56,326 nucleotides of DNA. Origin: an uncultured virus (IMG/VR IMGVR_UViG_3300009785_000018) (taxonomy: Duplodnaviria; Heunggongvirae; Uroviricota; Caudoviricetes). Where the stretch lies: the IMG/VR virus record IMGVR_UViG_3300009785_000018. One strand, written 5' to 3'. Positions within the stretch are counted from its first letter, which is position 1, and every line of letters begins with the position of its first letter. Positions 2,070-56,028 of the stretch are shown piece after piece. Made by a program: the position numbers and the translations under genes. Under the pieces are notes generated by a model. It was given only the letters and a program-made list of their open reading frames with translations, had not been told where the DNA came from and made no database searches.

Positions 2070-2339
2070 ATGACCAAATTTGATTATAAAAAGCCCACAG
2101 CGCAAATGCTGGGTAGATGGCAACCTTGGCATAAGGAGCATACTGAATTATTCAAGAAGGCGTTAAGTAAAACTGGACAGATTTGCATTATGTTAAGCCT
2201 TGCAGAACAAGACGACAGTAATCCATTCGATCCACTCACAGTTACAAATAATATTAAGAAGGTTTTATTGAACGAAGGATATACGTTTAACAAACAATAT
2301 ACCATTATTGTTGTGCCAAATATTATAGATATCAGTTAG
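2070..2339 (+). pseudogene. probably truncated HxGH-family nucleotidyltransferase
   Basis: MLGRWQPWHKEH (HxGH altered to HKEH); only 89 aa, ending at VPNIIDIS where it meets the stop of the convergent LRR gene. Confidence 0.55.
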
Positions 2340-5300
2340 GGAGTAGCAGGCTTGGCCTCTTTCCATGCACGAACTGAAAAACCAATCCGATCTCTAATTG
2401 CTGTACCGCCACCAGGGGTGGGATTAGTCTGATCTGCAGTTACCAAAGCATCACCATCAATACTCGCGATTGCCGATATATTACCACCTTGGACAAAACT
2501 GGGTGGGGACTTGCTGGGGTCATACCAGTAATAACGTATCCTCAAATTGTAGCCCGCCAAAGAACCGGTCGATTTAGCTGTAACTATCGCTCGACCGTAT
2601 TGCTGACCACCGATTGCTTCGCTATTAATAAACTCAACTACTGTTTGGCTATCGTTGTAATTAATACTTGAATTGGTTGAATGTATTGGGGTGTTTATAG
2701 TAGAGATTATTGCAATGGTATCATCATCATAAAATGGGGTAAAATCATGATTATTGTTTGTGCGAATAGAAGTAAATTCCACAGAATTATTTATATCAAA
2801 TATTGGTATGTATAAATTACTCGGAGTGTGATTTTTATAATAAGCATTGTTATTTGAATCCAAGGCTATATGAATACCCCATCCACTTTTAAAAGAATCA
2901 TACGTAACTTTACCTGAATAGCTCGTCGCGCCTGTTGTTCTGATCGGATCGGTTTCAAAAATTGCTGAAGTAATTTGTACATTGCCTGGGTCATAATATT
3001 CATGTGTTGCAAAGGTTGGAGCGTCTCCTTCAAATCTAACAATTAACAGGTTGTCGCATCCAAAAAACACACGATATCCAATCGAGGTCACATTGTCGGG
3101 AATCGTGATATCGGTTAGTTTTGAGCATCTAAAGAATGCAAAATCTCCAATCGAGGTCACACCACTGCCAATCGTGATATCGGTTAGGCTAATGCATCTA
3201 TTGAATGCGCTCTTCCCAATCGCTGTTACGCTGTCAGGAATGGTAATGCTAGGCAGGCTTGTGCAGGTATTGAATGCATCCCTTTTAATAGTGGTCAAAG
3301 TATTGGGTAGCGTGACACTTACCAGATTTGAGCAGAATCTGAATGTCCCATCTTCAATCGAGGTCACGCTGTCTGGGATGGTAATACTGGTCAGGCCAGA
3401 GCAGTCCCAGAATGCATTAGTTCCAATCGAGGTCACGCTGTCTGGGATGGTAATGCTGCTTAGGAATGTGCAGTTTTGGAATGCCGCCGTTCCAATCGCG
3501 GTCACGGCTAAGCCATTATAAGTGCTGGGAATATCCAAGGTTCCGAAAGCAGTTTCTATACAATCGGCCACTCTATACGTTCCATCACCCCTTAAGGTAA
3601 ACGTTAGGGAAGCTACTGATGCTAGCGTTCTAACACCCAAACCTCCATACTTGCTTACACCATCTCCACCATTAGCTGGGGATATGTAGCTGCTAAACGC
3701 TCCAGATGGGACGCTAGCAAATTGTCCGGAAACATCGGGACTTTCTATACGGCCAAATGGACCCACTAGATAACTAGTAGTGCCCTCAAAGTCAATCTCT
3801 AAAACTGGAGCGGTTGTACCCTCAAAGTTAATTAAAGTGACACTATCTAAGTATCGTAAAGCAGCAAATCCAATATTAGTAACACTGCTTGGTATCGTAA
3901 TGCTGGTCAGGCTAGAGCAGCCATAGAATGTCTCCTGTTCAATCAAGGTTACACCGTCGGGTATCGTAATGCTGGTTAGACTACTGCATCTAGTGAATGC
4001 CCCTTCTCCAATCGATGTCACACTGTCGGGAATGGTAATACTGGTTAGGCTAGTGTTACCACCGAATGCAGTATTTCCAATCGAAGTCACGCTGTCTGGG
4101 AGGATAATGCTAGGCAGGCTAGAGCAGCCGTTGAATGCGCCTTGCCCAATAGAAGTCACGCTGTCGGGGATCGTAACGCTGGTCAGGGAAGTGCAGGAAC
4201 TGAATACACCAATTGCAATCGAGGTCACGCTATCGGGTATGGTAATGCTGGTCAGGCTAGTGCAGTAACTGAAAGCAAAAGCGTCAATCGAGGTCACGCT
4301 GTCTGGGAGGATAATGCTGCTTGCGCTAAAGCAGGATCTGAATGCACTAGTTCCAATTGAGGTCACGCCATCGGGGATCGTAATACTGGTCAGGCTAGTG
4401 CATAAAAAGAATGCAATATCCCCAATCGAAGTCACGTTATCAGGAATAGTAACGTTGGTCAGGCTAGTGCAATTATGGAATGTAGCATTTTCAATCAAGG
4501 TCACGGCGTCGGGGATATTAATGCTAGTCAGGCTAGAGCAGTTTGTGAATGCACTATTTCCAATCGAGGTCAAATTGCTACTACTACCAATCGTTATACT
4601 AGTTGCGTTTTTGCAGTTATAGAATGCCCGTATTCCAATCGAGGCCACGCTGTCTGGCAGCGTAATGCTGGTCAGACTTTGGCAATTTTCGAATGCATTA
4701 TATCCAATCGAGGTCACTGGTAATTCATCCGGTGATTGTGATGTATCTAGATGGGTACTGGGAACATCTATTGTTCCGCTAGCAAATGTCGGGCAATTAG
4801 TCACAGAATACTCAGTGCCATCATCATTCAAGGTAAAAGTAAGACCGACATTAGAAGCGTCGATTGATTCGTTTATGTCTAAACCTGCGTATGTTGTTCC
4901 ATTTCCTGCATTTTGGTAACTTACTATTGTATTCAGTGGGACGGTAATTGTTGTGGTCAAAATGCCTTGCCAATCAGGGTATGGTATTTTGTTGGATAAG
5001 ACGGGGGCAGATGTTGCTAGACAGGTTATGCTGCCTAGACTAGAACACTGGTCGAACGCTGAGATTCCAATCGAGGTCACGCTATCGGGAATGGTTATGC
5101 TGCTTAGGCTAGTGCAATTTTCGAATGCATTGTTTCCAATTGTTTCCAAGTCTTCGGAAAGATCAATATTAATTAGGCTAGAGCAGCTTTTGAATGCACT
5201 GCTTCCAATCTCGGTCACACCGTCGGGGAGGGTGATGTTGATTAGACTTGTGCAGCTTTGAAACGCATTATTGCCAATCGAGATCAATTCTTCGGAAAGG

Positions 5301-7321
5301 TTAATACTGATTAGGTTAATGCAGTTATTGAATGCGTAAGTTTCAATTGCGGTCACATTGTCGGGAATCGTAATACTATTTAGGCTTGTGCATAATCGGA
5401 ATGACCCAGATTCAATCGACGTCAAACTGTCGGGAAGGGAAACATCATCTAAGCTAACACATTCATTAAATAACCTACATGCAATCTCGGTCACACCTTC
5501 AGGGATTACAACTTCGGTTAATCCGGTCCTTTCGAATGCGGCTTCTCCAATTGAAGTCACACTGTCTGGAATTGTGACTCTTCTTAAGAAAAGGCAGTCA
5601 CGGAATGCAGCATCCCCAATCGAGGTAATACTGTTAGGAATCACAACACTTGTTAATAAAATGCAGTTTTCGAATGTGCTATCTTCAATCGAACTTATAT
5701 TTCCGATTATGTTTTCAATGCTTTCCAAGCTAATGCAGTTTTCGAACGCAAAGGCCCTAATCCTAGTTAAGCTGTTGGGAGTTACAATGCTTTCCAAACT
5801 AGAGCATCCTTGGAAAGTGTATAGTGGAATTGTTGTTATACCGTCCCCCATATCTACGGTTGTTAGAGCTATACAATCTTTGAATAAAGCTATCCCAATC
5901 GAGGTTACACTGTCTGGAATTACTACACTTGTTAGAGCTATGCAATCTTTGAATGCACAGCTTGCAATGGAGGTCACTGGTAATGTATCCTCTGATTGTA
6001 ATGTGTCTAGGTGAGTACTTGGAATATCTAATGATCCATTGTATTCTGTTCCACAACTAGTTAAGACGTAAGCCGTACCATCTTCATTTATCTCAAATAC
6101 TATGTCAGATCCTGAATTAGAATAATTATTAGATACCGTCGCCTTTATAGTTGCAAAATATCTTGCATCGTCAGTTGATCCCTTGTCTGCATCTCCCCTA
6201 GATGGATATTGCACTATACACTCTTCATTTACATTTGCGGAAGCTCCATATACCACTGGAAATCCATTGTTAAACTTATGATATACATTTTCCTCTGGAT
6301 CATAAGCCAAAGGTGCCGAAGCTTCAGATGGGCTAAATATGGCAAATTTTTTCAATTCTCCAGTTACATTCAATTCTAATGTAGCTGCATCGGCAAACCA
6401 ATTATTGCTTTGAGGAGCAGACAAAAGTCTAGAATCATAAGACCCAAACTCTGCAGGATCAAAATCTAAAGTCTGTTGAATTCTAGTTATAGGATTAAAT
6501 GCTAAAATAGTAGTTCCGTATAATGGCGGAAAAACCGCCCATTCACCAACTGTAGTTGGGGGAGCAAATCTGGAAATAAATGCTGCATCATCAGCTTCAC
6601 CAGGTGTCAGTTCTTTTTCAGGGATTTCTTCCGTGTGTACATATAAGTCATTTTGACTTGGATTATAACATATTACGTTCCCAGTGCGTCCAGCCATGAC
6701 CGCCCAGTCCCCAACAACAGATGGCCCTGCAAAGAAGTATGGGCCAAGTGTACCATTATCTGCACTTATCTGGGGCTGACCATGTGTAACTTGCTGAACA
6801 GATTGAAAATATGGATTGACTGCAATAATTTGTGGCGAAAATGTTGGAGCAAAAACTGCCCAGTCTCCTACCGTCGCAGTACCTCCAAATGGATTAGGCG
6901 AGGATTGTGGATCGTAATCTCCAGTATAATTTAGTTCAAAGCCACCCTCATTTACTGGATCAAAACAATAAGCTATACGCTTAGAAACACTATAATCCAC
7001 TATCTCAAATACTGCATATTGTCCAACTCCAGCAACCCCACCAATTGATCTATCAAAACTTAAAGGGAATTGTTTAACAATATCATTTTGTGGATCGTAA
7101 AATACAATAGAGTCTGGACCGCCAGGAACATTCATCCCCATAGTAGCAAAATTACCAACAGCAGCTATTCCATAGGTAAATCCCCCAGTGACGGTTTGGG
7201 ATGGTGTTTGATATAGTCTCTTATATGGGTTGTAAGAGGGTATAATAGAGGTTTCTTCTTCTACGTTATATGATGGTGGAAAAACCGCCCAATCTCCTAT
7301 AGATGCACTTTTTTTTGACAT
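2336..7321 (-). CDS. large BspA-type LRR protein: N-terminal beta-propeller-like repeats plus three capped LRR blocks; putative receptor-binding protein
   Basis: About 34 23-aa repeats [23 protein letters not shown] in blocks of ~14, ~13 and ~7, each after an FxxxxDGT-Y...DIPST cap; N-terminal (V/I)G(D/E)WAVF repeats; last gene of the tail-tip run. Confidence 0.85.
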   Translation of the reverse strand: MSKKSASIGDWAVFPPSYNVEEETSIIPSYNPYKRLYQTPSQTVTGGFTYGIAAVGNFATMGMNVPGGPDSIVFYDPQNDIVKQFPLSFDRSIGGVAGVGQYAVFEIVDYSVSKRIAYCFDPVNEGGFELNYTGDYDPQSSPNPFGGTATVGDWAVFAPTFSPQIIAVNPYFQSVQQVTHGQPQISADNGTLGPYFFAGPSVVGDWAVMAGRTGNVICYNPSQNDLYVHTEEIPEKELTPGEADDAAFISRFAPPTTVGEWAVFPPLYGTTILAFNPITRIQQTLDFDPAEFGSYDSRLLSAPQSNNWFADAATLELNVTGELKKFAIFSPSEASAPLAYDPEENVYHKFNNGFPVVYGASANVNEECIVQYPSRGDADKGSTDDARYFATIKATVSNNYSNSGSDIVFEINEDGTAYVLTSCGTEYNGSLDIPSTHLDTLQSEDTLPVTSIASCAFKDCIALTSVVIPDSVTSIGIALFKDCIALTTVDMGDGITTIPLYTFQGCSSLESIVTPNSLTRIRAFAFENCISLESIENIIGNISSIEDSTFENCILLTSVVIPNSITSIGDAAFRDCLFLRRVTIPDSVTSIGEAAFERTGLTEVVIPEGVTEIACRLFNECVSLDDVSLPDSLTSIESGSFRLCTSLNSITIPDNVTAIETYAFNNCINLISINLSEELISIGNNAFQSCTSLINITLPDGVTEIGSSAFKSCSSLINIDLSEDLETIGNNAFENCTSLSSITIPDSVTSIGISAFDQCSSLGSITCLATSAPVLSNKIPYPDWQGILTTTITVPLNTIVSYQNAGNGTTYAGLDINESIDASNVGLTFTLNDDGTEYSVTNCPTFASGTIDVPSTHLDTSQSPDELPVTSIGYNAFENCQSLTSITLPDSVASIGIRAFYNCKNATSITIGSSSNLTSIGNSAFTNCSSLTSINIPDAVTLIENATFHNCTSLTNVTIPDNVTSIGDIAFFLCTSLTSITIPDGVTSIGTSAFRSCFSASSIILPDSVTSIDAFAFSYCTSLTSITIPDSVTSIAIGVFSSCTSLTSVTIPDSVTSIGQGAFNGCSSLPSIILPDSVTSIGNTAFGGNTSLTSITIPDSVTSIGEGAFTRCSSLTSITIPDGVTLIEQETFYGCSSLTSITIPSSVTNIGFAALRYLDSVTLINFEGTTAPVLEIDFEGTTSYLVGPFGRIESPDVSGQFASVPSGAFSSYISPANGGDGVSKYGGLGVRTLASVASLTFTLRGDGTYRVADCIETAFGTLDIPSTYNGLAVTAIGTAAFQNCTFLSSITIPDSVTSIGTNAFWDCSGLTSITIPDSVTSIEDGTFRFCSNLVSVTLPNTLTTIKRDAFNTCTSLPSITIPDSVTAIGKSAFNRCISLTDITIGSGVTSIGDFAFFRCSKLTDITIPDNVTSIGYRVFFGCDNLLIVRFEGDAPTFATHEYYDPGNVQITSAIFETDPIRTTGATSYSGKVTYDSFKSGWGIHIALDSNNNAYYKNHTPSNLYIPIFDINNSVEFTSIRTNNNHDFTPFYDDDTIAIISTINTPIHSTNSSINYNDSQTVVEFINSEAIGGQQYGRAIVTAKSTGSLAGYNLRIRYYWYDPSKSPPSFVQGGNISAIASIDGDALVTADQTNPTPGGGTAIRDRIGFSVRAWKEAKPATP
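3060..5980 (-). repeat. imperfect 69-bp coding repeats (three LRR blocks)
   Basis: Recurring CCAATCGAGGTCAC and GAATGC at ~69-bp period. Confidence 0.9.
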
Positions 7322-7379: not shown

Positions 7380-10300
7380 TTATGCATTCGGTAAACTATA
7401 TGAGACACTTAAACCGTCATAATTTGTTCCATATCCAATTGCATTAGCTGGAACATTAATGGTTGTGGCTGATATCCTTTCAAAATTCGTCGCGTTGGGC
7501 TCGGCGATGCTTGTGTCTATTGGGTTTAATGTTGGGGCGTTTTTCGAAAGGAAGTTAACTGTGGCTAGATTATTACAATCCTTGAAAGTATAAGGTCCAA
7601 TCGAGTTCACGCTGGCTGGGAACGTAATGGTAGTCAAGTTAGGCATGGTAGTGAAAGCACCCCGTCCAATTTCCCTTACGCCGTTGGGAATCGCAATAGT
7701 GTTGAAGGCAGTGTGGCCGAACGCACCCTCTTCAATCACTTTCACGCTATTGGGAATCGTAAAGCTGTTCAGGCTATCGCAGTGACCGAATGTACCCCTT
7801 GGAATTGAGGCAAGGTTGACGGGTAAGACAGCGCTAGTCAGGCTACTGCAGTCAAAGAATAACTCTGTTCCAAGTGTTTGTACACTATAAGGGATGAAAA
7901 TACTGGTCAGGCTACGGCAGTTGGCGAATGCCTGAGCTGCGATCAATTCCACGCTGTTAGGAATCGTAATACTACTTAGGCTAGTGCAGCCTCGAAATGC
8001 AAGAGAATAAATAAATCTCACACTGTTAGGAATCGTAATGCTAGGCAGGCTAGAGCAGCCGTCGAATGACTGTTGCCCAATATGGGTCACTCCGTCGGGG
8101 ATCGTAACGCTGGTCAGGGAAGTGCAGTTACCTAATAACATACCTGCAATCACTCTCACTCTGTCGCCGAAGGAAATGCTGCTTAGGCTTGTGCAGCGAT
8201 TGAATGCACCAATGTCAATGAAGTTTACGAAGTCGTGGATCGTAATACTGGTCAGGCCAGAGCAGCCAAAGAATGCCCAACTCCCAATTGTGACCACGCT
8301 GTCTGGGATTATAATGTTAGTTATGTTAGCGCAGTTTAAGAATGCAGAATTTCCAATCGCGACCACTGGTAATTCATCCGGTGATTGTGATGTATCTAGA
8401 TGGGTACTGGGAATTTCTTTGTCACCTGAGGCGGATTTAAGACATTCGATTAGAGTATATTCATCGCCTCGATCGTTCAGTTGGAAGGTAAACTCTGGAG
8501 CAAGGGCATAAATTGTTCTGTCTATATTGAAAAAGTCTCTAATATTACAATTATCATCGCCAAGGAATTCAAATTCATCAATTCTATACTCTCCGATTGC
8601 TTCATCAAAGAGATAACTTGGCCGATCTACATCTCCGAGATTTCTGTAAGGAAAGATATGAATATCAGAGATTTTATTTCCTACATATATCTCTTGATTT
8701 AACCCAATGCCGTCTATAAATAAATGTGAATCTATAGGATTTGCAGGAATAGTAACATTTGTACCAAAGGATTTGTATATTAATTCGTCCTGCATACTAA
8801 TATCCCATCCTCTATTTAAATTTTCAATATCTATAGATGGATTGTAATAAGAAGATCCAGAATATCCAACACTACCTCCGCTAAACTCAATTGAATACGC
8901 ATTTTCATCAACAAAGCCCAAGGGGTTGATTGTTTTCAACAAACTTCGATCAAAACATATACCAGAATTAAAAACTGCAGCACCAGTTAATAATTTTGGT
9001 CTTTCCGTTATATTTGGAACATAATTATTTTTATTTAAAGATTGGTCTTTCCACTCGGTAACAAAAACCTCTCCACTCTGTGCAAACTGTTTTACATTTT
9101 CAATATTAATATAGTTATTGTAAAAATAAATATCTTTACTTTCTCCATCACTAGCTCTTTGTACGGTCATAATGCACCCAGTAAAGCCTGGATTCACCCT
9201 AGAAAGAGATAATAGCAAATTAGCGACGTGAAAGTTATAAGGATAGTTGGTGTTATAGCCTGAAACCTCAATCGTAGGTAGGTCTTCGAAACATGCACCA
9301 CTTTTAGAAGCTATGAAATCTCCAGTTAAAGTAAATCCAACGTCATCGCCAGTAGCTTCTGGAAGCTCTCCAAAAACTACTTCACCAACTGTATCCGCCA
9401 TAAATAAATCTTCAAAACCAGAAATAGTCGTGTCATATATTTTTTCATATGTATATACACCTCTTTTAACAGCTGAAAGGAAATTCTGGTCGACTATACC
9501 AGTTTCTGTAATATATCCAGCGATCCCGCTTCCCGTTATATCGTAATATCCAGTGATTTCTCCAGTATATGATATAAATTTTCTTACAATTTCTGTGGTG
9601 TATGCGCCTGGCTGAAGATTCACTTCTCCGTCTGGCAAAAAGTTGGCTGGATCAAAGAAAGATGCGCCGTAACCAGTTCTAATAATCCCAGTAAGCTGTT
9701 CTTCGTTAAAAGTTCCAGTGCCAATAATATTATTGACTATTCCTGTAATTACCTGCGATCCAAAAGGAACGAATCCAGAAAAACGAGTTGTTGACATTCC
9801 TGCTAAATTAATATCGGTATCAACGATACCACTTCCAAGTCCAGTTAAAAGCAGCTCATAATCATTAACAATCTGTCCAGTAGGTTCAGCATAACCAGTT
9901 AAAATTCCTGTTCCTACGCCAGTTTGAATAACACCAGAAGCATCTAAGCCAGAAACCAAACCAGTCTTAGAAATAGAAACTGTATTTATTCCTGTAACTA
10001 CAGCATCTTCGGTATGAGAAAAATCTCTAAAAAAAGCCTTATCTCTAAATATGTCACCAGTCTGCCCAGAAAGATGAGACAGCGAAACACCAATGTTTGC
10101 ACCATTAAAATCGGCGTAATAGCTAGTAACAGTAATAGATCCAGATAGTCCGTCGAAGTCTGCAACAAAAGGCTGTATGTTCAAATAAGAACTAGACCTT
10201 ATAGTTGAAGGTAAATTTCCTCCAGTTAGACTATAAGCATATTCTATTTGGCCAAAATTTGTATAAAATAATAAATCAGCTACTCCGCTTAAATTTTGTG

Positions 10301-10880
10301 ACTGAGAAGGGGTCAAAAGAAATTTTGCTCCGCCTAACAGTTCATATCCCGTTACTTCTTGATAAGTGTCTATGGAAAAATCTACTGGAACATCTGAAGA
10401 AACTAGTTCTCCACTAAATACCGTAAAAGATAATGGTGGGTCAATATTATTTATAAAACCCGTTAAGGTTTCATCGGCTACTATTTTATCAGAACTTGTA
10501 GTAATTGAATACGATGGGGTTTGTCCAAAAAAAGTAAATCCAATATTTTCTGGTTGCTCGTTAATAGCAAATACTCCAGATATTTTTCCATTCGGTAAGG
10601 TTTCTCCTACAACTTTTGGAACCCCGTTTATGAAATATTCGTGTTGGTTATTCTTTAAATTTCCAGAAATAATAAAACTACTATTATTAGAATAACTATC
10701 TACAAAGCCCGTGTTTCTGTCAAAAATTTTACCACCAGCAAATTTATAGTCTATGTTATAGTCTCCAGTTAAACCAACATGAATATCTGAAGATCTGGTC
10801 TTGGTTATAACGTTAAAAACATAACTATAATCACCAGTTTGATCTGCAATGCTTCTAAAATTTTTGCCGCTTAATATCAT
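7380..10880 (-). CDS. tail-tip-type structural protein fused to a C-terminal BspA-type LRR domain
   Basis: TG/SG-rich beta-type N-terminal ~790 aa, then FTFQLNDRGDEY cap and ~12 LRR repeats; start overlaps the upstream stop. Confidence 0.75.
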   Translation of the reverse strand: MILSGKNFRSIADQTGDYSYVFNVITKTRSSDIHVGLTGDYNIDYKFAGGKIFDRNTGFVDSYSNNSSFIISGNLKNNQHEYFINGVPKVVGETLPNGKISGVFAINEQPENIGFTFFGQTPSYSITTSSDKIVADETLTGFINNIDPPLSFTVFSGELVSSDVPVDFSIDTYQEVTGYELLGGAKFLLTPSQSQNLSGVADLLFYTNFGQIEYAYSLTGGNLPSTIRSSSYLNIQPFVADFDGLSGSITVTSYYADFNGANIGVSLSHLSGQTGDIFRDKAFFRDFSHTEDAVVTGINTVSISKTGLVSGLDASGVIQTGVGTGILTGYAEPTGQIVNDYELLLTGLGSGIVDTDINLAGMSTTRFSGFVPFGSQVITGIVNNIIGTGTFNEEQLTGIIRTGYGASFFDPANFLPDGEVNLQPGAYTTEIVRKFISYTGEITGYYDITGSGIAGYITETGIVDQNFLSAVKRGVYTYEKIYDTTISGFEDLFMADTVGEVVFGELPEATGDDVGFTLTGDFIASKSGACFEDLPTIEVSGYNTNYPYNFHVANLLLSLSRVNPGFTGCIMTVQRASDGESKDIYFYNNYINIENVKQFAQSGEVFVTEWKDQSLNKNNYVPNITERPKLLTGAAVFNSGICFDRSLLKTINPLGFVDENAYSIEFSGGSVGYSGSSYYNPSIDIENLNRGWDISMQDELIYKSFGTNVTIPANPIDSHLFIDGIGLNQEIYVGNKISDIHIFPYRNLGDVDRPSYLFDEAIGEYRIDEFEFLGDDNCNIRDFFNIDRTIYALAPEFTFQLNDRGDEYTLIECLKSASGDKEIPSTHLDTSQSPDELPVVAIGNSAFLNCANITNIIIPDSVVTIGSWAFFGCSGLTSITIHDFVNFIDIGAFNRCTSLSSISFGDRVRVIAGMLLGNCTSLTSVTIPDGVTHIGQQSFDGCSSLPSITIPNSVRFIYSLAFRGCTSLSSITIPNSVELIAAQAFANCRSLTSIFIPYSVQTLGTELFFDCSSLTSAVLPVNLASIPRGTFGHCDSLNSFTIPNSVKVIEEGAFGHTAFNTIAIPNGVREIGRGAFTTMPNLTTITFPASVNSIGPYTFKDCNNLATVNFLSKNAPTLNPIDTSIAEPNATNFERISATTINVPANAIGYGTNYDGLSVSYSLPNA
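7560..8370 (-). repeat. imperfect 69-bp coding repeats (LRR block)
   Basis: Same unit, more diverged. Confidence 0.8.
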
Positions 10881-23814: not shown

Positions 23815-23816
23815 TT

Positions 23817-24722: not shown

Positions 24723-24723
24723 T

Positions 24724-25614
24724 ATGCACGAAGAAAATAATATTCCCAATACTCATGACCCAGGTCAACCAGAATACTTCGACGAGATTTCTAAGAAACA
24801 AAAGAAAAGTCAGCCCATTAATTTTGAAAATACAATCTGGCAAACTTTGGACCAAAAACCCAGAATAGGAAATCTATATTTCATGGATAGCTTGCTATTC
24901 AGTTCTTGCAAATTTAAGGCAGAAAAAGAATTGGGATATAGCCAAGAAGAAGAAGCTATTAAAGAGAGAGAAGATAGAATCGTAGAACTTTATGAAGAAG
25001 AGGATGGCGATATAGAAAAGTTTACCCGCTCCAATTATTTGACGGCGACCAAAGAACAGATTCATCAAATTACTTTTAGAGATAGAATGTATAGGATAGA
25101 AGTTCAGATTATTACTATGGAAATGAAGTTTTTTCAAACTGGCTCTCCTTTTATCGGACCTATACCATATTTCCAGCCGCGAACGTATCGAACCACTGGT
25201 CGTAGCTTCCCAGTATTTACAGAAAGTCACGAAAGAATGGCGGGACAAAGACACTCTGGACGAGTCAATATAGATACTACACGTATTATGAGACAACAAA
25301 ATGGTACATATTTAATCAAAGTGACTGTTGTAGGAAATGGTTTTACTACAAGTGGATTTGGCTTTCCTGTGGGAATAATCCCATTTGCAAGTGACAGTAT
25401 TCCTATCCTTTTCATAAATGCAAACCCAAATGAAACACCTTTAGCTGCTTTTGGCAGTATTATACCAGTGAATTACAATAGTGATGGCGAAGCAGTTGAA
25501 GACGTTTACAACTGGTCACTTTCTGAAGAATTAAAAAAACATAAAGATGGGGATATTCCCCTCAATGAGCTGTCTATGCTAGCTCAAGAAACTTTGGACT
25601 CTATCGCAGAATAA
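24724..25614 (+). CDS. hypothetical protein
   Basis: Track ORF starts at 24685; the in-frame ATG at 24724 (MHEENN) lies 1 nt after the previous stop and is the likelier start. Confidence 0.6.
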   Translation: MHEENNIPNTHDPGQPEYFDEISKKQKKSQPINFENTIWQTLDQKPRIGNLYFMDSLLFSSCKFKAEKELGYSQEEEAIKEREDRIVELYEEEDGDIEKFTRSNYLTATKEQIHQITFRDRMYRIEVQIITMEMKFFQTGSPFIGPIPYFQPRTYRTTGRSFPVFTESHERMAGQRHSGRVNIDTTRIMRQQNGTYLIKVTVVGNGFTTSGFGFPVGIIPFASDSIPILFINANPNETPLAAFGSIIPVNYNSDGEAVEDVYNWSLSEELKKHKDGDIPLNELSMLAQETLDSIAE

Positions 25615-47199: not shown

Positions 47200-49179
47200 T
47201 TAATCGCTCGGTGCGTCCCTTCTAGAATGCCAAACTAAAGCTCCTAGAAAGGTGTCTAATTCAAAATCATCACAAATCTTATCAATCTCTTCTTGCATTT
47301 TTGGGTTTTCATCAATTGACTTGCTTTTGATGATAGAGGCAACCGCCTTTTCCCAGTCCGCTTTATTATAATTTTCTACAACCTTTTTTGCGATTGAATT
47401 GGCAAAATCAACTTGAGAGTCTGTAAGCTTCTTAACGTTGTAACTACCCTTAAGTTTTTTAATGGCGTTTTCTTTGATTTTATCCATCTCCGTTAGGCAA
47501 GACTGTATTTCCTTTAGTGAGATACCTTCAATACCACCAACGACTCTACTTTGTCTAGGTCCACTAATCGGAACCCCACTGCCAGCTGGTCTTCCTTTTT
47601 CTTGTTTTATTTTAGTTTTACTAGATGGACCAGCTTCTTCATCTATTGGATTGTAATTCATTTGTGGCTCATAAAGACTATCGTTTTTCAATTTGCGATA
47701 TTCTTTTTGATTTTTAAGACTTTCATTCTTCTCTGGAAGAATACCATCTTCAATTGCTGTATTCAGCTCTTCTGGAACTAAGAATCCCAACTCAGCCATT
47801 CGAGTATAAACTCTGTTCATTTGTGTTTGGTCTTCAAGGTTTATAGAAGAAAGTTTTACTGTTGGAGCATTCGTGTACCCCATTTCTTTGCAAACATTTC
47901 CAATTTCTCCCTCAAGCCATTCTTTAAAAATAGACTGACCCCTTTTAAGTCTCTGGCAAAATACCCTAACCTTAGTCATTTGATTGGAAAACTTCTCGTT
48001 GCTTCCAAAAATTGACTGTAAACCTTCTCTAATATCCTCATTTACCTGAGCATATTTTTCGGCTCCAACAACTTTGGTAATATCTGGAATAACATAATCA
48101 ACCTCAGTGGTGTAATCTGCAACGAGAACTCTCTGAGTTGCCTCACTATTGAAAAGCTGTCTCATATAAGCTAAATGCTCTGGATTGGGAGGAACTTCAT
48201 TACCGTCAACTTTATAGCCCCCCATAGTAACTTTTAGAATCATATTTTCCAGAGTCTTTAAAACTTTTCTATCAGCCTTTTTCATTTCAAGCTTCAATTC
48301 AATGTCATCTAGTACTCCATAAAAGAGTGGTACTGCAAAATATTCGTAATCTTGTTTTTGATAAAAAGCGGAACTCACATCTTTAAGAGGAACGTAAATA
48401 GAAGATGTTAAAGATAATTCAGAACTATCTTTAATCGCTTGTTTTATTTCTGGACTTAATTTTTGATATAAAATCTTCTCACTTTGAGTTTGAGGATTTT
48501 TCAATCTTTTAATTTCGTAAGGACTTAAAACTTTATAAATGTCTCTATCGCTTGTTAAACCCCCATACAAACTTACTTGGGCTGGATTAAGAACTGTATA
48601 TTTTACTGGTATTTCCGCACTAGACGCATACATTTTTAGATTTTTAGTATCTTTGCTATTGATCTTTCCTTTCATTGCATACGGAAAAACATTGCAAGAT
48701 CTATACAATTCTCTATAAAACTGTTCCGCAAACCCATTTATATTAATGGCTTTTAACCAAGTCTCGCAAAAATTTTTAGCACTCTTATTAGAGGACGATA
48801 ATTTAATTTTTGACATAGAGAATTCTACCATAGCTTCAATCGTATTTCGAAATAGCTGGAACTCCTGCCAAGCTTTTTGACATAGCCATACAGTTTCATT
48901 AATTGTAACATAGCCTCCATTATTGTTGTAAAGATTTCCTCCACCAGTTAAATTGGGAAACCTATTCGATAATTGAGTGTTGATCCCTAAAGATTTTACT
49001 CCTCTGCGACCTAAACCGCCCTTTACCCATTCGCTACCAGCGAATCCAACCATCTTGTTATAATCTTCATTAGAAAAGTCAGATCCCAATGACTTTTGTG
49101 GTGCAGATTCCTTCTGCTCGTAATATTTCTGCCTGTCAGTGAAATAAAGATTGTCTGCCTTGTAATTATTTTTCCCCAT
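47200..49179 (-). CDS. portal protein
   Basis: 659 aa, helical, first gene of the head cluster; FRNTIEAMVEF, FYRELYRSCNVF and YQKQDYEYFAVP segments are portal-like. Confidence 0.75.
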   Translation of the reverse strand: MGKNNYKADNLYFTDRQKYYEQKESAPQKSLGSDFSNEDYNKMVGFAGSEWVKGGLGRRGVKSLGINTQLSNRFPNLTGGGNLYNNNGGYVTINETVWLCQKAWQEFQLFRNTIEAMVEFSMSKIKLSSSNKSAKNFCETWLKAININGFAEQFYRELYRSCNVFPYAMKGKINSKDTKNLKMYASSAEIPVKYTVLNPAQVSLYGGLTSDRDIYKVLSPYEIKRLKNPQTQSEKILYQKLSPEIKQAIKDSSELSLTSSIYVPLKDVSSAFYQKQDYEYFAVPLFYGVLDDIELKLEMKKADRKVLKTLENMILKVTMGGYKVDGNEVPPNPEHLAYMRQLFNSEATQRVLVADYTTEVDYVIPDITKVVGAEKYAQVNEDIREGLQSIFGSNEKFSNQMTKVRVFCQRLKRGQSIFKEWLEGEIGNVCKEMGYTNAPTVKLSSINLEDQTQMNRVYTRMAELGFLVPEELNTAIEDGILPEKNESLKNQKEYRKLKNDSLYEPQMNYNPIDEEAGPSSKTKIKQEKGRPAGSGVPISGPRQSRVVGGIEGISLKEIQSCLTEMDKIKENAIKKLKGSYNVKKLTDSQVDFANSIAKKVVENYNKADWEKAVASIIKSKSIDENPKMQEEIDKICDDFELDTFLGALVWHSRRDAPSD

Positions 49180-49720: not shown

Positions 49721-50884
49721 GTGGCAGACAAAACAATAACAGAACTTACAGAAATTACTTCAGCTAATTCGACAAATGACTTTTTACCAGTTGTTGATAC
49801 TAGCGCCGTAGAAACTAAGAGGATCATTTTATCTAATTTGCCTATGAGCAACGAAGAGATTGGTCGATCCTACCCCTTTACCACGGACTTTCAAACAGGC
49901 AATGAGAGGACACGGAATGTATCCTCAATTGCATCAAGCGAATTCTTTAATAATACCAATTTAAGCTCTATTTATATTGGAAGCAACGTGACCTTGATTG
50001 CATTGTCTGCATTCAAAAATTGCACAAACCTTAGCAACGTTACAATCCCCGATAGCGTGAGATCGATTAACTCTTTTGCATTCGACAATTGCACAAGCCT
50101 AACCAGTATTACGATCCCTGAAAGAGGGGTCTCTATTGGAACTAGCGCATTCAAAGGCTGCTCTGGCCTGACCAGTATTACAATTCCCGATGGTGTGACC
50201 TCGATTGAAGGCAATACATTTTTTGAATGCACCGGTCTTACCAGTATTACCATTTCCGACAGCGTTACCGCGATTGGAAGTAGTGCATTCTATGGCTGTT
50301 CTGGCGTAAGCAGTATCACGATTCCCGATAGTGTAACCTCGATTGGGGCCAATGCATTCCGAGACTGCACTAGCCTGACTAGCTTTATTATTGGCAACAG
50401 CGTGACCTCGATTGAAGGTAGTACATTCAAAGACTGCACTGGCCTTGCCAGCATAACCATTCCCGATAGCGTTACCACGATTTCAAGTAATGCATTCAAT
50501 GGCTGCACTAGCCTAGCCAGCGTTACGATTCCTGATAGTGTAACCTCGATTGGCGGTGATGCATTCCGAAACTGCTCTAGCCTTACCAGCATTACGATCG
50601 GCAATGGCTTGACTTCGATTGGACCTGTTGCATTCTTTGGCTGCACTGGCCTGACAAGCGTCACCATTCCCAACAGTATGACTTCAATTGGGATTTTTGC
50701 ATTCAGTCAATGCACTAGCCTAGCCACAATCACCTCTCTTGCTACAGATGCCCCAAGTGTTGAAACTACCTCGTTTAATAATGTTACGGCTACCACAATT
50801 ACTGTCCCAGCTGGGTCTACACAGAGTTACAAAGATGAAGGAGATGGAACAACATACGGGGGCTTAGAAATCATAGAGGCTTAA
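49721..50884 (+). CDS. BspA-type LRR protein (~12 repeats) with shared N-terminal module
   Basis: GTG start; ADKTITELTEITSAN..DFLPVVD; TSIGxxAFxxC repeats. Confidence 0.9.
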   Translation: MADKTITELTEITSANSTNDFLPVVDTSAVETKRIILSNLPMSNEEIGRSYPFTTDFQTGNERTRNVSSIASSEFFNNTNLSSIYIGSNVTLIALSAFKNCTNLSNVTIPDSVRSINSFAFDNCTSLTSITIPERGVSIGTSAFKGCSGLTSITIPDGVTSIEGNTFFECTGLTSITISDSVTAIGSSAFYGCSGVSSITIPDSVTSIGANAFRDCTSLTSFIIGNSVTSIEGSTFKDCTGLASITIPDSVTTISSNAFNGCTSLASVTIPDSVTSIGGDAFRNCSSLTSITIGNGLTSIGPVAFFGCTGLTSVTIPNSMTSIGIFAFSQCTSLATITSLATDAPSVETTSFNNVTATTITVPAGSTQSYKDEGDGTTYGGLEIIEA

Positions 50885-53190
50885 TATTATGTCAGATAAA
50901 AAAATATCAGAACTTACACAAATCATTTCAGCTAATCCGATAACTGACGTTTTGCCGATTGTGGATATCAGTTTAAATCAAACCGATAAAATAACTATAG
51001 GCAAGCTTCCAATGAGTGCTTCTGCTATAGCACGGTCTTATCCCTACACTATAGACTTTATTTCAGGGACAGAACAGACGCGAGATCTGACACTTATTGA
51101 TACTTCAAGCGGGTATCAAAGCAATTCGAATTTAGAGCTTATTTACATTGGCAGTCATGTGACCTCGATTGGGGACAGTGCATTCTATAACTCCAATACC
51201 CTTACTAGCATTACCATCCCCAATAGCGTGACCTCGATTGGGAGTCTTGCATTTAGTAACTGCTCTAGTCTAACAAGTGTTACAATTCTTGACGGTGTAG
51301 GCGCGACTTCGATTGGAACTAGCGCATTCGGTGGTAACGCTAATCTAACCAGCGTTACGATCCCAAACAGTGTGACCTCGATTGGAGAGCAAGCATTTTT
51401 TAGCTGCGGCCTAGCCAGCATTACGATCGGCAATGGCGTGACTTCGATTGGAGTTAGTGCATTTTTTGACTGCACAAGCCTGGCTAGCGTTACCATCGGC
51501 AACAGCGTTACCACGATTTCAAGTAATGCATTCAATGACTGCACTAGCCTAGCCACAATCACCTCTCTTGCTGAATCTGCCCCAAGTGTTGAAACTAACT
51601 CGTTTAATAATGTTGCGGCTACCACAATTACTGTCCCAGTTGGAGCAACAGTAAGTTACCAAAATGCAGGAAATGGAACAACATACGGAGGTTTAATAAT
51701 CGCAGAACTCGAAGAGGCTTAATATTATGGCAGACAAAAAAATATCAGAACTTACAGAACTTACTTCGGCTAATGCGGTAACTGACGTTTTACCGATTGT
51801 GGATATCAGTTCTAACGAAACTAAGAAAATTAGCCTAGCTGATTTACCAATTAGCGATGTCGCCATCGCCCAATCTATGCCCCACACTACCGACTCTCAG
51901 TTAGGGGTGGTGCAGACAAGAAATCTGACAACTATTGATAATTCAAGCGGGTATTCAAATAATACCAATTTAGAATCTATCTATATAGGGAATAACGTTA
52001 CATCGATTGGAAGTAGTGCATTCTATTACTGCTCTAACCTGACCAGCGTTGTCATACCCAACAGTGTGACTTCGATTGGAGATAATACTTTCATTGGCTG
52101 CTTTGACCTGACCAGTATTAACATCCCAGACAGCGTGACCGCGATTGGATCTCAGGCATACATGTATTGCCAAAGCCTGACCAGCATTAAGATCCCCGAC
52201 AGCGTTACCACGATTGGGAGTAGTGCATTCTATTACTGTACTAACGCAACAAGCATTACGATCGGCGACAGTGTGACCTCGATTGGAAGTGATGCATTCT
52301 CTGCCTGCAATAGTATTACTAGCGTTGATCTACCCGACAGCCTTACTTCGATTGATAGCAGTTTGTTTACAACATGCGCTAACCTCACAAGTATTAATGT
52401 ATCCAGTGAAAATGCATTATTTTCATCAATTGACGGTGTTCTATTTAGTAAGTCTGCAGATAATTTAGTTATTTTTCCATATGGTAAAAGTAGTGCATAT
52501 TCTATTCCCAATAGCGTGACTTCGATTGGAAATCGGGCATTCAGATTCTGTAATAACCTGACCAGCATTACGATTCCCAGCAGCGTGACCTCGATTGGAG
52601 ATTCGGCATTCCGAAGCTGCTCTGGCCTTACCAGCATTACCATCCCCAATAGCGTGACCTCGATTGGAGATTTTGCATTCTATGGCTGCTCTGGCGTAAG
52701 CAGTATCACGATTCCCGATAGTGTAACCTCGATTGGGGCTAATGCATTCGCTTTCTGCTCAGGCTCAACCAGCATAACCATTCCCAATAGCGTGACTTCG
52801 ATTGGAGAGCGTGTATTCCTTGGCTGCACTAGCCTAACCAGCATTACTATACCCGACAGCGTGACCTCGATTGGAGTGAGTGCATTCCAAAGATGCACTA
52901 GCGTAACCGATATTACCATCGGCGACGGTGTGACCTCGATTGGGGATTTTGCATTCAATCAATGCACCAGCCTAACCAGTATTACCATCGGCGACGGTGT
53001 GACCTCGATTGGTCAGACCGCCATCTCTCAAACTGGCCTGACTAGTCTTACCATCCCCGATAACGTTACCTCGACTGTATATCAAGCATTTGCCTTTAAC
53101 ACTAGCTTAACAACCGTTACAATTGGCAATGGTTTGGGCAATATTGCTGGCTTTGCATTCAGAAATTGTACGTCGCTATCAACACTCAGT
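49980..53190 (+). repeat. imperfect 69-bp coding repeats across three LRR genes
   Basis: Recurring GTGACCTCGATTGG...GCATTC...TGC. Confidence 0.9.
50889..51722 (+). CDS. BspA-type LRR protein (~7 repeats) with shared N-terminal module
   Basis: [26 protein letters not shown] repeats; YGGL C-cap. Confidence 0.9.
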
Positions 53191-53346
53191 TGCACTGCTA
53201 CGGATGCTCCAACGCTTGGAACTACTCCATTTGATGGCTGTACTAGCTTAAGCGAAATTCAAGTTCCAAATTCAGCAGTAGCGGATTATCAAGCAAAAGG
53301 AGAGGGAAATAACAAATATGGCGGCCTAGAAATCGTAGGCGTTTAA
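51727..53346 (+). CDS. BspA-type LRR protein (~17 repeats) with shared N-terminal module
   Basis: [26 protein letters not shown] repeats with an [11 protein letters not shown] insertion; YGGL C-cap. Confidence 0.9.
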
Positions 53347-53373: not shown

Positions 53374-56028
53374 GTGTCACAAAATACTAAAATATCAAAT
53401 CTTACCGAGCTTACAGACCCATCCAGTACGGATTTTATCCCTATTGTAGATACTGTAAATAAAGAGACCAAGAAAATCTCTTACAATAGTCTTACAAGTG
53501 GCTTTTATTCGGAATCTAGTGATATCTTGCCAGACAGTGACATAACTTATGATATTGGCAGCCCCGATAAAAGATTTAGAGATTTGTATCTTAGTGAAAA
53601 CTCTATATTTTTAGGGGACTCTACAATTTCTTTTTCTGGTGGACCGTCAGGTGGTTTATTTGTCAGTGGTTCAGGCGGAAATGACAGGTTAATTAACGAC
53701 AAAGAAACTGGTCAGTTTTTAAGTAATGGTGGAAGTGGTAATTTTACTGAAGCTTTTATTCAAAGCTCGTTAGACATAGGTAGGTATATTTTCTTAGGTG
53801 ATGAACTTAATGAAAGTAAAATACAAATGAAGGGTATGGGTCCTGTTAAGTATGAATTTACTGCGGGTGCTAATGGATTTAAATTTACAGATGAAGATTA
53901 TGATATTGATCTTATAAATATCCCTCACCCATTTATCAATAGCGACGGATCACGGAATGTTATTACGCTTGATTCTACTAGGGTGCAGGGAAACTTTTTA
54001 GCAACTGGAGGAATGTACCACAGTGACAGCATCACTGGCCCACAGTATGGATTTGGAGGAGGCTCAGACCTTCACCTTAAAACAAGTGGAGTTAGTAGAT
54101 TAGCCGTTACAAAGGAGAGTGGTAATGTTGGTATAGGAACTACTTCTCCAGATGCAAGATTACACGTAGATGGCCACTTTAAATTAAATATATCATCTGC
54201 AAATCGTACACCAGGAAAAAGTGTGGCTTTAATTAAAAGCGATAATGGAACTGCAGCTAATTTAAGAGTCGAAGGGCCAATTGCAGCAACACACGATCTA
54301 TTTAAAAACAGTGGGGCAGATAATGGTTTTGCAGATAACTCAAATCACTTTCATACGGTACAGAAAATTAATCGCATTACCCAACAAGTTGGCGCAGGCA
54401 AACCAAACGAAAGAGTTCAAGAACAATATTATGCGATTGCAAACAATAATCTTAAAAATAATAAAGCTGCATTTTGGAATTGGCATAGGGTTTCAAGGAG
54501 TGTCGCTTCTGCAAGTGTTAGTTTAACCAACCTAGTAGGATGGAACGTTTCGGCTATTCAAGATACCGATAATCGTTCATCAAATTCTGAAGCTTCGTTT
54601 CCCGCAGGAGGGGCGGAAGCCGCAGTACTTACTTTTGACAGCGAATCAAATAGGTCAGCAGTTTTATCTAATGGAGATCTTTTGCAAGTTACTATTTCAA
54701 TAGATTTTGAAGGCGCGATTGTTGCGGCAACACTTTATGCCGAAGTTACTGCTGTAGATGCGGAACAAGCTACCGTAGTTCTTTATGGTGGCAATTATAA
54801 ATCGATTGGTCAAGTTCCAGATGGTAATGATCAAATCGCACTAACCAGCGGATTTACTATAAATAAAATTGACGTAAATCAATATATGGGTCTCTCAGAC
54901 GGGACTGTTACTGTGTTAACCGACAATACAAGAGCGACCGAAACCGATACATTCTCTCTTTCTTTTTCAAGCGCTCATAGCCTTGAATTAAATGATGTTA
55001 TTACGGTCATAACTGACGGCGACTCCTCTCACGGATTTAAAGATGCTGAAGTGGCGTTTGTGAAAGAGGTTACAAGCACTACTGAAGCAAAATTCGTTTA
55101 CGGAAGAGTGTTTGATCCAGCGCCCGCCTCTGCTCGAAACAATGTTACTGGTAGCTCATTTGTTGGTATATTAAGAGGCACCCTTGATGGTCTTCACAGA
55201 TTTACTGCAGGTGATCAATTAATGCATTTTAATGCAGATAACCAAGGGCGATACAAAAGTTATCAAATAGGACCAGGCTCTGAGGTCGGTGCAGACTGTA
55301 TTGCAATCGGTAAGAACGTTTATAATAAAGACGCTTCGACTATTAAGATCGGTTACGATAATAATATGTTGAACATTGATTCTGCTGGAATTGATGTTGC
55401 AGGAACAATTAATGCTACTGGAACAATTACTGCTGATGGAGATGTAAAGTTAAGCGATTTTACTTCAACGTCTCGTTCTACAGATGTTTCGGCTTTAGAT
55501 CCCATACAGAACAACCAGCCAGCGTCCGATGATACGGTAGCTAACTTATCCGTTGATTCATCGGGCAACGTTGTTAGAGGATCACAAGAAGCAACTTGGA
55601 CTTTCAGTCGTGACCAGCTTAACGCATTAACAACTGCTAAAGTAAATTTGTTATCTTCTCCAGGTGCTGGAAAGTGCATTGTAGTTGAAGAAAGTAACTG
55701 GCTTATAGAAGTAGACCTCACAAAAGCAGCACAATCAACTCCAGTTTCTCTTACATGCGAGATAGTGAATGGGCAGACCCAATACAAAGTAGCAACGCAA
55801 ATTACTGCCGCCAACCTAACTCTAATAGCAGGACACATAAAGACTGCTAACACTGATGCATTTGGAATGTATTCTAGAGATGTTCCAGAACTGGATAGAA
55901 TTTCCAAGTTTAATGAGCCTATGACTATTCGTGCAAAAAATAGTAGTGGCGTTGTTAATTTTCCAGATAATTTTGTTAGCGTAAAACTAAAAGTCAAATA
56001 CAGGGTCTTCGACAAGGATACTTTTTAA
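53374..56028 (+). CDS. tail-fibre-like protein with the same N-terminal module
   Basis: GTG start; TKISNLTELT..DFIPIVD..ETKKI; DILPDSDITYDIGSPDKRFRDLYL and GNVGIGTTSPDARLHV fibre-type motifs. Confidence 0.7.
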   Translation: MSQNTKISNLTELTDPSSTDFIPIVDTVNKETKKISYNSLTSGFYSESSDILPDSDITYDIGSPDKRFRDLYLSENSIFLGDSTISFSGGPSGGLFVSGSGGNDRLINDKETGQFLSNGGSGNFTEAFIQSSLDIGRYIFLGDELNESKIQMKGMGPVKYEFTAGANGFKFTDEDYDIDLINIPHPFINSDGSRNVITLDSTRVQGNFLATGGMYHSDSITGPQYGFGGGSDLHLKTSGVSRLAVTKESGNVGIGTTSPDARLHVDGHFKLNISSANRTPGKSVALIKSDNGTAANLRVEGPIAATHDLFKNSGADNGFADNSNHFHTVQKINRITQQVGAGKPNERVQEQYYAIANNNLKNNKAAFWNWHRVSRSVASASVSLTNLVGWNVSAIQDTDNRSSNSEASFPAGGAEAAVLTFDSESNRSAVLSNGDLLQVTISIDFEGAIVAATLYAEVTAVDAEQATVVLYGGNYKSIGQVPDGNDQIALTSGFTINKIDVNQYMGLSDGTVTVLTDNTRATETDTFSLSFSSAHSLELNDVITVITDGDSSHGFKDAEVAFVKEVTSTTEAKFVYGRVFDPAPASARNNVTGSSFVGILRGTLDGLHRFTAGDQLMHFNADNQGRYKSYQIGPGSEVGADCIAIGKNVYNKDASTIKIGYDNNMLNIDSAGIDVAGTINATGTITADGDVKLSDFTSTSRSTDVSALDPIQNNQPASDDTVANLSVDSSGNVVRGSQEATWTFSRDQLNALTTAKVNLLSSPGAGKCIVVEESNWLIEVDLTKAAQSTPVSLTCEIVNGQTQYKVATQITAANLTLIAGHIKTANTDAFGMYSRDVPELDRISKFNEPMTIRAKNSSGVVNFPDNFVSVKLKVKYRVFDKDTF

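Follow-up and report, generated by a model that had tools for sequence, protein, structure and literature searches.

Homogenised leucine-rich repeats in five genes of a marine tailed phage and probable diversifying selection at four codons of each unit

Results and discussion

The window analysed here is a 56,326-nt stretch of the uncultured virus record IMGVR_UViG_3300009785_000018 of IMG/VR (hereafter G000), and its subject is a set of five genes, A to E, whose sequences assign them to the leucine-rich repeat (LRR) genes of the BspA/TpLRR (LRR_5) family, carried here by a tailed marine phage. Their 69-nt units share a core of the form x1 x2 GCA TTC x3 x4 (offsets +24..+41 of each unit; for example 50279..50296, plus strand), in which the four x codons encode very different amino acids and retain biased third bases. 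The explanation which we regard as probable is that these are homogenised LRR repeats under diversifying selection on a predicted binding stripe. Tandem duplication, unequal crossing-over and gene conversion, both inside single genes and from one gene to another, would keep the units of all five genes similar, and the four x codons per unit, which are the usual variable positions of the family, would be under diversifying selection. New x residues would arise by ordinary point mutation, and the same recombination would spread and reassort them. Since an amino acid change needs codon positions 1 and 2, the third base inherited from the homogenised unit is left over like a fossil and would mimic the NNY pattern (Y, pyrimidine) of a diversity-generating retroelement (DGR). 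As one unit would make one turn of a solenoid, the four residues would stack into a stripe, most likely binding host surface molecules, and the N-terminal segment which several of these proteins share likely anchors them on the virion.

Codon pattern at the four variable positions

The first-pass annotation had described a single LRR pattern over 49980..53190; the pattern is present, but it belongs to three genes and not to one. A loose search gave 33 unit rows, and stricter patterns left 29 units in genes A-C and 38 in genes D and E, then 27 and 37; as the strict patterns fix Ile/Leu, Phe and Cys, the ratio of nonsynonymous to synonymous rates (dN/dS) comes out too low in those columns. The region's codon table contains all 16 di-codons that had been cited as examples (the unit at 50255, for instance, has AGT AGT/TAT GGC, with CGA GAC at 50324 and GCT AAT/GCT TTC at 52714), and the wide variation of the x amino acids was borne out by the entropy of 29 units, which was highest at x1-x4 (3.05, 2.47, 3.41 and 3.08 bits; next column, 1.87). 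The third base was T in 21/29 units at x1 and 24/29 at x2, T in 18 and A in 10 of 29 at x3, and C in 20/29 at x4. Codon usage taken from 11 phage genes without LRRs (10,267 codons), combined with the amino acids at x, predicts T/T/T/C counts of 13.5, 17.7, 14.2 and 6.3 (P 0.002, 0.008, 0.065 and <5e-6), the T bias of x3 taken alone not being significant against genome codon usage. When third bases were shuffled among the x columns within each amino acid we obtained 62.5 ± 3.5 against 83 observed, a value reached by 0/20,000 shuffles. The bias thus exceeds amino acid identity and codon usage, which the first-pass annotation had named as the explanation that might account for it fully. Among the 38 units of genes D and E the bias at x1-x3 was in each case non-significant (P 0.06-0.11), and C at x4 held (22 observed vs 8.4 expected). 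These P values measure shared ancestry, the units being non-independent, and the complete T,T,T,C set occurs in just 12/27 units. Context of the next base was rejected as a cause of the C at x4, the share of C being 0.29-0.32 whichever base came after. The silent A of GCA, reported earlier as near-invariant, was present in 22/22 Ala codons, and ATT in 29/29 units of genes A-C.

Homogenisation of the units

Between the 27 units, third bases differed by 0.41 at x and by 0.43 at the other 19 columns, whereas codon positions 1-2 differed by 0.68 at x and by 0.24 in the scaffold. As the x third bases are as different as those of the scaffold, they are not specially fixed, and every column keeps the memory of one recent unit. 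The GC content of third positions (GC3) was 0.48 in the units vs about 0.27 in other phage genes, which suggests that the unit may have been imported. Other silent states were found in related phages, with C at x2 in G004, G016, L218 and L240, and in L240 the silent A of the core GCA was kept in 41/42.

Six in-frame tracts of high identity, 46-100 nt long, are common to different genes. On the plus strand, 50284..50359 of gene A corresponds to 52674-52749 of gene C over 76 nt with 2 silent mismatches, across a unit boundary; 50468..50519 of gene A corresponds to 51504-51555 of gene B over 52 nt, with one mismatch at x4, a non-synonymous G/A; and 50711..50810 of gene A corresponds to 51540-51639 of gene B over 100 nt with 6 mismatches, covering the last unit and the C-cap. 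The gene B unit at 51294..51362 (plus strand) carries a rare patch, Asn replacing the conserved Cys, which is also found in the gene D unit at 4099, 47 kb off and on the opposite strand; its x1x2 are those of the gene A unit at 50117, and the gene B allele P0001 has x1x2 of gene D. The gene D alleles are without the rare patch of unit 4099. The congruence of left and right halves of the units was 0.21, compared with simulated values of 0.41 ± 0.10 for no recombination and 0.0 ± 0.13 for free recombination; clustering of breakpoints is not assessable from only six tracts. Concerted evolution is recognised by recent DNA tracts shared between units and paralogues, and such tracts were found here, together with lineage-specific silent states. 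The GCN codon was also considered as a DNA anchor common to the whole family, an idea dropped because no such anchor was found in cellular arrays (p 0.5).

Probable selection at the four codons

We fitted dN/dS with a custom simple MG94-type model on the 23-codon units, using a FastTree tree and pooled base frequencies. In genes A-C the ratio was elevated at x, in line with the earlier suggestion of diversifying selection, at 2.10 vs 0.40 elsewhere (likelihood-ratio test 17.5, p 3e-5; star tree, 2.25), and in genes D and E it was 2.22 at x vs 0.58 elsewhere. With their own silent rate the x columns alone gave 4.8 (A-C) and 2.0 (D and E). Taken column by column the values were 2.0 for x1, 1.35 for x2, 3.0 for x3 and 2.0 for x4, and at most 0.9 for every other column. 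In 135 simulations with neutral x columns, run without recombination, with block and with free recombination (90 with recombination), 0/135 reached 2.1 and the maximum was 1.77; the difference at codon positions 1-2 was 0.48 ± 0.05 in these simulations vs 0.68 observed. With the x columns preset, 6/8 sets of units from other phages were significant, with dN/dS of 2.0-5.2 (tail genes of the relative G003, 2.0; G004, 2.8; G016, 4.6; L240, 5.2; L218, 2.5; L181, 3.1).

For comparison we used 79 cellular LRR loci, mostly contigs of metagenome-assembled genomes (MAGs) taken as cellular without a check for viral origin, of which 63 had at least 10 units and 43 at least 14; arrays of more than 32 units were cut to 32 for dN/dS. 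The ratio at x was above that of the scaffold in 43/43 arrays and above 1 in 17/43 (median 0.88). It climbed with the homogeneity of the array (rho -0.78), and the most homogeneous arrays were above 1 in 8/8 cases (median 1.47). In 31/63 arrays three or more of the four columns with most variation were x columns. An elevated dN/dS at x is therefore a tendency of the LRR family which is strong in these phages. Three gut MAG contigs, L072, L078 and L087, which may be cellular or viral, carry homogenised BspA arrays in which dN/dS at these four codons is 2.3-3.9.

Turnover at x among relatives and alleles

The relative G003 has portal, protease-like and capsid-like proteins 87-91% identical to those of G000, and in the counterpart units of genes A, B, D and E the residues still shared are 8-17% at x and 54-66% in the scaffold; in the same comparison dS of the scaffold was higher than dS of non-repeat sequence. 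With so few x residues kept, the idea that old unit-specific x residues had been shielded from homogenisation was rejected. Among close protein alleles, with distinct changes pooled, we counted changes at 76/196 x slots, 60/929 scaffold residues and 68/1979 other residues. The gene B allele P0001 differs at 4/24 x vs 3/113 scaffold residues. The strongest case is module 2 of gene D (residues 866-1143), where three allele pairs differ at 26, 37 and 36 of 48 x positions, while in module 1 the same pairs differ at 4, 4 and 0 of 48. The gene D alleles, P0127 and P0128 included, are of the same length, and module 2 keeps its unit number and register. Outside the units 20-55 of 970 residues differ (20/970 in the pair with 36/48 x changes), and within the module 2 scaffold 32/228. 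In one pair 21/37 of the x changes require 2-3 base changes, and new residues at x are K, E, Q, M or W in 4/26 and 4/37 cases, contrary to an AAY template. An old swapped-in module under strong selection and fast conversion of short patches both fit these data. DNA of the divergent gene D alleles was not found among the viral contigs searched, and a scan with the unit pattern returned only two near-identical records.

Between G000 and near-identical assemblies we counted 0 differences in 33,055 nt (G001), 1 in 26,836 (G002) and 4 in 9,186 (L167). The sole difference within an LRR gene, C>T at 52247, which is also seen in runs X2 and X3, is at a scaffold site. No x change was seen in these assemblies or in the long contigs of four runs, a comparison made from contigs only, in which rare variants drop out, samples may be related and the long pieces listed miss the central units. 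Over 50165-53041 and 54275-55507, contigs of relatives (at least 85% identity) in runs X4 and X5 reach 10-50 times the depth of the phage, so that the repeat unit and part of the neighbouring 884-aa gene are common to more abundant relatives.

Search for a diversity-generating retroelement

The first-pass annotation had raised, beside selection, a DGR-like mutagenesis of an AAT AAT..AAT AAC ancestor. No reverse transcriptase (RT) was found in G000 or in the related records searched, and no template repeat in G000 or G003. The RT domain RVT_1 was absent from G000, from 21 related records and from 3 further records, control genomes giving a match, and Avd was absent from 5 records, all of them fragments. 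G003 (141,669 nt, CheckV 77%) is collinear with G000 on both sides of the LRR cluster, and because it starts and stops inside this cluster it is probably almost complete; among the 53/129 of its open reading frames (ORFs) scanned individually against Pfam there was no RT. The same scan gave a RecA-family protein, PD-(D/E)XK and ERCC4 nucleases and DnaE, and the recombination proposed above may be the work of the phage's own recombinase. Between 62 and 133 kb G003 also encodes PhoH, ribonucleotide reductase, IMPDH/GMP reductase and a number of sugar epimerases, along with two DUF932 paralogues and a T4-type terminase. As for a template, there was no copy of the unit beyond the coding LRR genes in G000 (E below 1.9), and 0/89 copies lay outside such genes in G003.

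The codons themselves speak against a DGR target. In four-fold codons between x2 and x3 the silent A was kept in 25/26 cases, as compared with 39% A at x positions 1-2 (p 1e-9), and likewise in five other sets. According to the accessible part of bioRxiv 2024.11.15.621889, roughly half of the adenines available to a DGR become mutated, and since a template covering x1-x4 must contain the silent A of GCA, its retention argues against a DGR. Purine-ending (NNR) codons make up 20/108 of the x codons in genes A-C and 48/148 in D and E, and since an AAY template yields none, they argue in the same direction. Base composition at x positions 1-2 was A 0.39, G 0.32, T 0.18 and C 0.11; the order A > G > T > C has been reported for DGR variable sites (same preprint, same part) and equally matches the preferred residues S, N, D and G. 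Also unfavourable to the DGR-like ancestor are the related phages L240, L218, G004 and G016, which fix C at x2, and the near-identical assemblies, in whose contigs no x change was seen. On these observations, made on G000 and the related records searched, a DGR target was rejected.

Structure of the repeats

The AlphaFold2 model of gene A has a mean predicted local distance difference test score (pLDDT) of 83.7, with 259/387 residues at 90 or above and residues 1-66 below 50. Its top Foldseek matches were the solved TpLRR proteins 4FS7 (E 8.5e-13, TM 0.63), 4GT6, 4FD0, 4FDW, 4CP6 and 6MLX, so the product of gene A is modelled as a solenoid of the same fold. In the modelled unit the main strand covers columns 19-21 and a short strand columns 5-6, and x1-x4 lie past the short strand, in a part of the unit that forms no strand; by the geometry of the model the x residues would stack turn by turn into a stripe. 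In the available portions of two papers, the hypervariable residues of a Flavobacterium psychrophilum LRR protein model lie on one side (PMC10392669), and the variable di-residue of FNIP repeats sits at the edge of their concave face (PMC9525666). Of the first-pass proposal of selection on a binding face after a recent expansion, diversifying selection after expansion and homogenisation is supported by dN/dS and codon bias, and the binding face itself is predicted. Exposure of the stripe, location on the virion and binding to the host would be in keeping with the proposed role; it is the position of the LRR genes beside portal and tail genes which suggests surface display and ligand binding.

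Weighing of the explanations

Several observations weigh against homogenisation with diversifying selection. Our MG94-type model is simple and own-built, and stationary T-richness could inflate the estimate from x columns only; x2 alone has no significant dN/dS, and two phage sets were non-significant (portal-side cluster of G003, 1.29; L200, 2.22, with a likelihood ratio of 2.4). A significant dN/dS of at least 2 was found in only 3/43 cellular arrays, which places the phages at the strong end. The x sites lie off the main beta strand, which is the usual ligand face of LRRs in the portion of PMC9525666 available. Identical di-codons are not reused between units above chance (10 vs 6.4, p 0.11; 10 vs 8.5, p 0.33), and the turnover at x of module 2 (36/48), known from protein alleles only, is faster than simple point mutation suggests.

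This last point favours an alternative that we consider possible but unlikely, in which short-tract conversion, quicker than the background and centred on the xx-AF-xx core, exchanges di-codon patches between the units of the five genes, about 67 in number, and with co-infecting relatives, so that diversity is mostly reassorted and not freshly mutated. In its fuller form this would be an antibody-like diversifier needing few enzymes, in which the units of the five genes, as virion genes, would be a mutual donor library, recombination anchored by TCG ATT GG, GCA TTC and TGC would rewrite the stripe of gene D module 2 much more quickly than the genome otherwise evolves, and the phage could switch hosts without an RT; we hold this fuller form to be just as doubtful. 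Such a process would resemble the templated conversion of pilin genes or of variable lymphocyte receptors (VLRs). It would explain why the x codons of module 2 are rewritten with register kept, 21/37 of the changes needing 2-3 bases, while module 1 is nearly unchanged, and why unit 51294 matches D4099 in its patch and A50117 in its x1x2 and P0001 carries x1x2 of gene D. The silent core sites are also most uniform in this phage family (GCA 22/22; 41/42 in L240), and the same seawater runs are rich in related units of at least 85% identity. However, the chance level of di-codon reuse tells against it too, 66 distinct tetrads in 67 units imply that new variants must come from mutation, and there are no silent donor cassettes or fragments in G000 or G003. 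Uniformity of the core is not general in cellular arrays (column 10 below the mean in 29/63), and gene D is accounted for equally well by an old module allele that was swapped in, the scaffold differing there at 32/228.

Relaxed constraint combined with codon effects is less probable still. Here x would be free loop positions, and dN/dS above 1 would come from scaffold homogenisation and T-rich drift; the T bias at x1-x3 in genes D and E is indeed near genome usage, and in most cellular arrays the ratio at x is near or below 1. It is largely refuted by the neutral simulations, which never gave the observed dN/dS and fell short in the difference at positions 1-2. Moreover, x4 retains C despite AT-rich usage, third bases of x1 and x3 are position-specific though flanked by variable bases, and alleles change preferentially at x. 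Least probable of all, to a degree that we regard as very remote, is adenine mutagenesis by a DGR or a DGR-like system whose RT and template would lie in the half of the genome that is missing, or would come from the host. The NNY-rich x codons, the A > G > T > C order and the estimated 47% completeness of G000 would allow for it, but RVT_1 was found in 0/1, 0/21 and 0/3 records and Avd in 0/5, no unit copy outside the coding LRR genes was found in G000 or G003, the silent A is kept (25/26), 20/108 x codons end in a purine, x is unchanged in near-identical assemblies, and the variation is spread across about 67 internal units rather than confined to one terminal repeat.

Comparison with known systems

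The phage genes share the 23-residue unit, the fold and the variable positions (xx-AF-xx-C) with BspA/TpLRR proteins (PF13306; 4FS7, 4GT6, 6MLX and PcpA, 4CP6). They differ in being phage-borne, in using one DNA unit for five genes and in an x dN/dS atop the cellular range; by eye they have no signal peptide or cell anchor, and a short viral N-terminal segment instead. These members of the TpLRR family would work like the LRR locus of F. psychrophilum and, as an analogy, the finger array of PRDM9. The available portion of PMC10392669 describes in F. psychrophilum tandem paralogous LRR genes with several hypervariable positions per unit, strain-specific unit number and sequence between conserved flanks, and recombination without a mobile-element enzyme. 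That locus is cellular, type 9 secreted and full of broken gene fragments, whereas the phage units are all in intact genes; the likeness covers the general pattern, the match of its variable positions to x1-x4 being unchecked. The PRDM9 zinc-finger minisatellite is likewise a homogenised coding repeat with non-synonymous change at few recognition codons (PMC3890296, in the part available), but it encodes an unrelated animal DNA-binding protein and serves as an analogy only. With DGRs of the BPP-1 type, as far as their partial descriptions go, there is agreement in the variable codon positions 1-2, the pyrimidine kept at position 3 and a probable role in phage receptor binding; here, in contrast, no RT, Avd or template was found, the silent adenine is kept, NNR codons are common and no within-population variation was seen in contigs. 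We found no description of phage-borne BspA arrays in the open-access literature, and the available portions of PMC12750041 and PMC2843621 contain nothing on phage LRRs.

The genes thus offer a quantified look-alike of a DGR, in which an NNY codon pattern from homogenised repeats under selection should not be taken for retroelement activity, and in an uncultured family of marine phages of about 142 kb they single out the BspA-type LRRs as modules that probably recognise the host. If patch exchange focused on one module were true, phages would have a way to gain receptor diversity without an RT, and the repeats would provide a scaffold from nature in which four positions of each turn are programmable.

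Gene map and genome setting

G000 is a linear record of 69,907 nt from seawater metagenomes, and 9/20 runs listed, all 20 of them contigs, share at least half of its sequence words. Contigs of 118-134 kb, from which the genome might be closed, are also known. Gene A (49721..50884, plus strand, 387 aa) consists of an N-terminal segment of about 50 aa common to genes A-C, 11 regular 69-nt TpLRR units (49979-50737) and a C-cap, and matches LRR_5 with E 2.6e-99 and 328 bits, against a Pfam gathering cut-off of 27.7. By the same cut-off LRR_5 was found in gene B (50889..51722, plus, 277 aa; E 6.3e-42, 143 bits) and gene C (51727..53346, plus, 539 aa; E 3.7e-114, 376 bits). Both are laid out as gene A, with 6 units at 51150-51566 in B and, in C, two runs of units (51988-52401 and 52507-53193) flanking a non-repeat island. 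Genes D (2336..7321, minus strand, 1661 aa, LRR_5, three TpLRR modules) and E (7380..10880, minus, 1166 aa, LRR_5, a single C-terminal TpLRR module) stand at the end of the tail module and are built from the same 69-nt DNA unit as genes A-C. Genes A and C have no entry in the exact-sequence collection, and none of the 120 matches listed when homologues of gene C were sought was a close allele. When cultured relatives were sought, gene A matched 59 records, every one below 60% identity, and the capsid-like protein had no match among 50,697 phage records.

Directly after gene C lies an 884-aa non-LRR gene (53374..56028, plus) of no Pfam family, whose N-terminal segment of about 50 residues is the one common to genes A, B and C; the closest ESM Atlas clusters of this segment, a lead only, consist of small viral proteins that belong to no known family. 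This gene is missing at its slot in the relative L181, where the C-like gene directly precedes the next conserved gene, and the LRR clusters of L240 and L218 have far longer multi-module LRR genes, so the content of the slot is variable. On the other side the cluster adjoins a probable portal gene (47200..49179, minus), whose ESM Atlas neighbours are named portal (0.95-0.98; a lead only). It starts the minus-strand head-tail module, which has cement/minor capsid and tape measure genes downstream. A plus-strand block at 16594-25614 (2406, 301 and 309 aa; no Pfam family), kept in G003, splits the tail module. Outside the window, at 66524-67150 of G000, a 207-aa gene with a counterpart in G003 ends in what we take to be a PEP-CTERM-like tail, which may hint at a Verrucomicrobia-type host, and its 383-aa neighbour resembles by eye an outer-membrane barrel.

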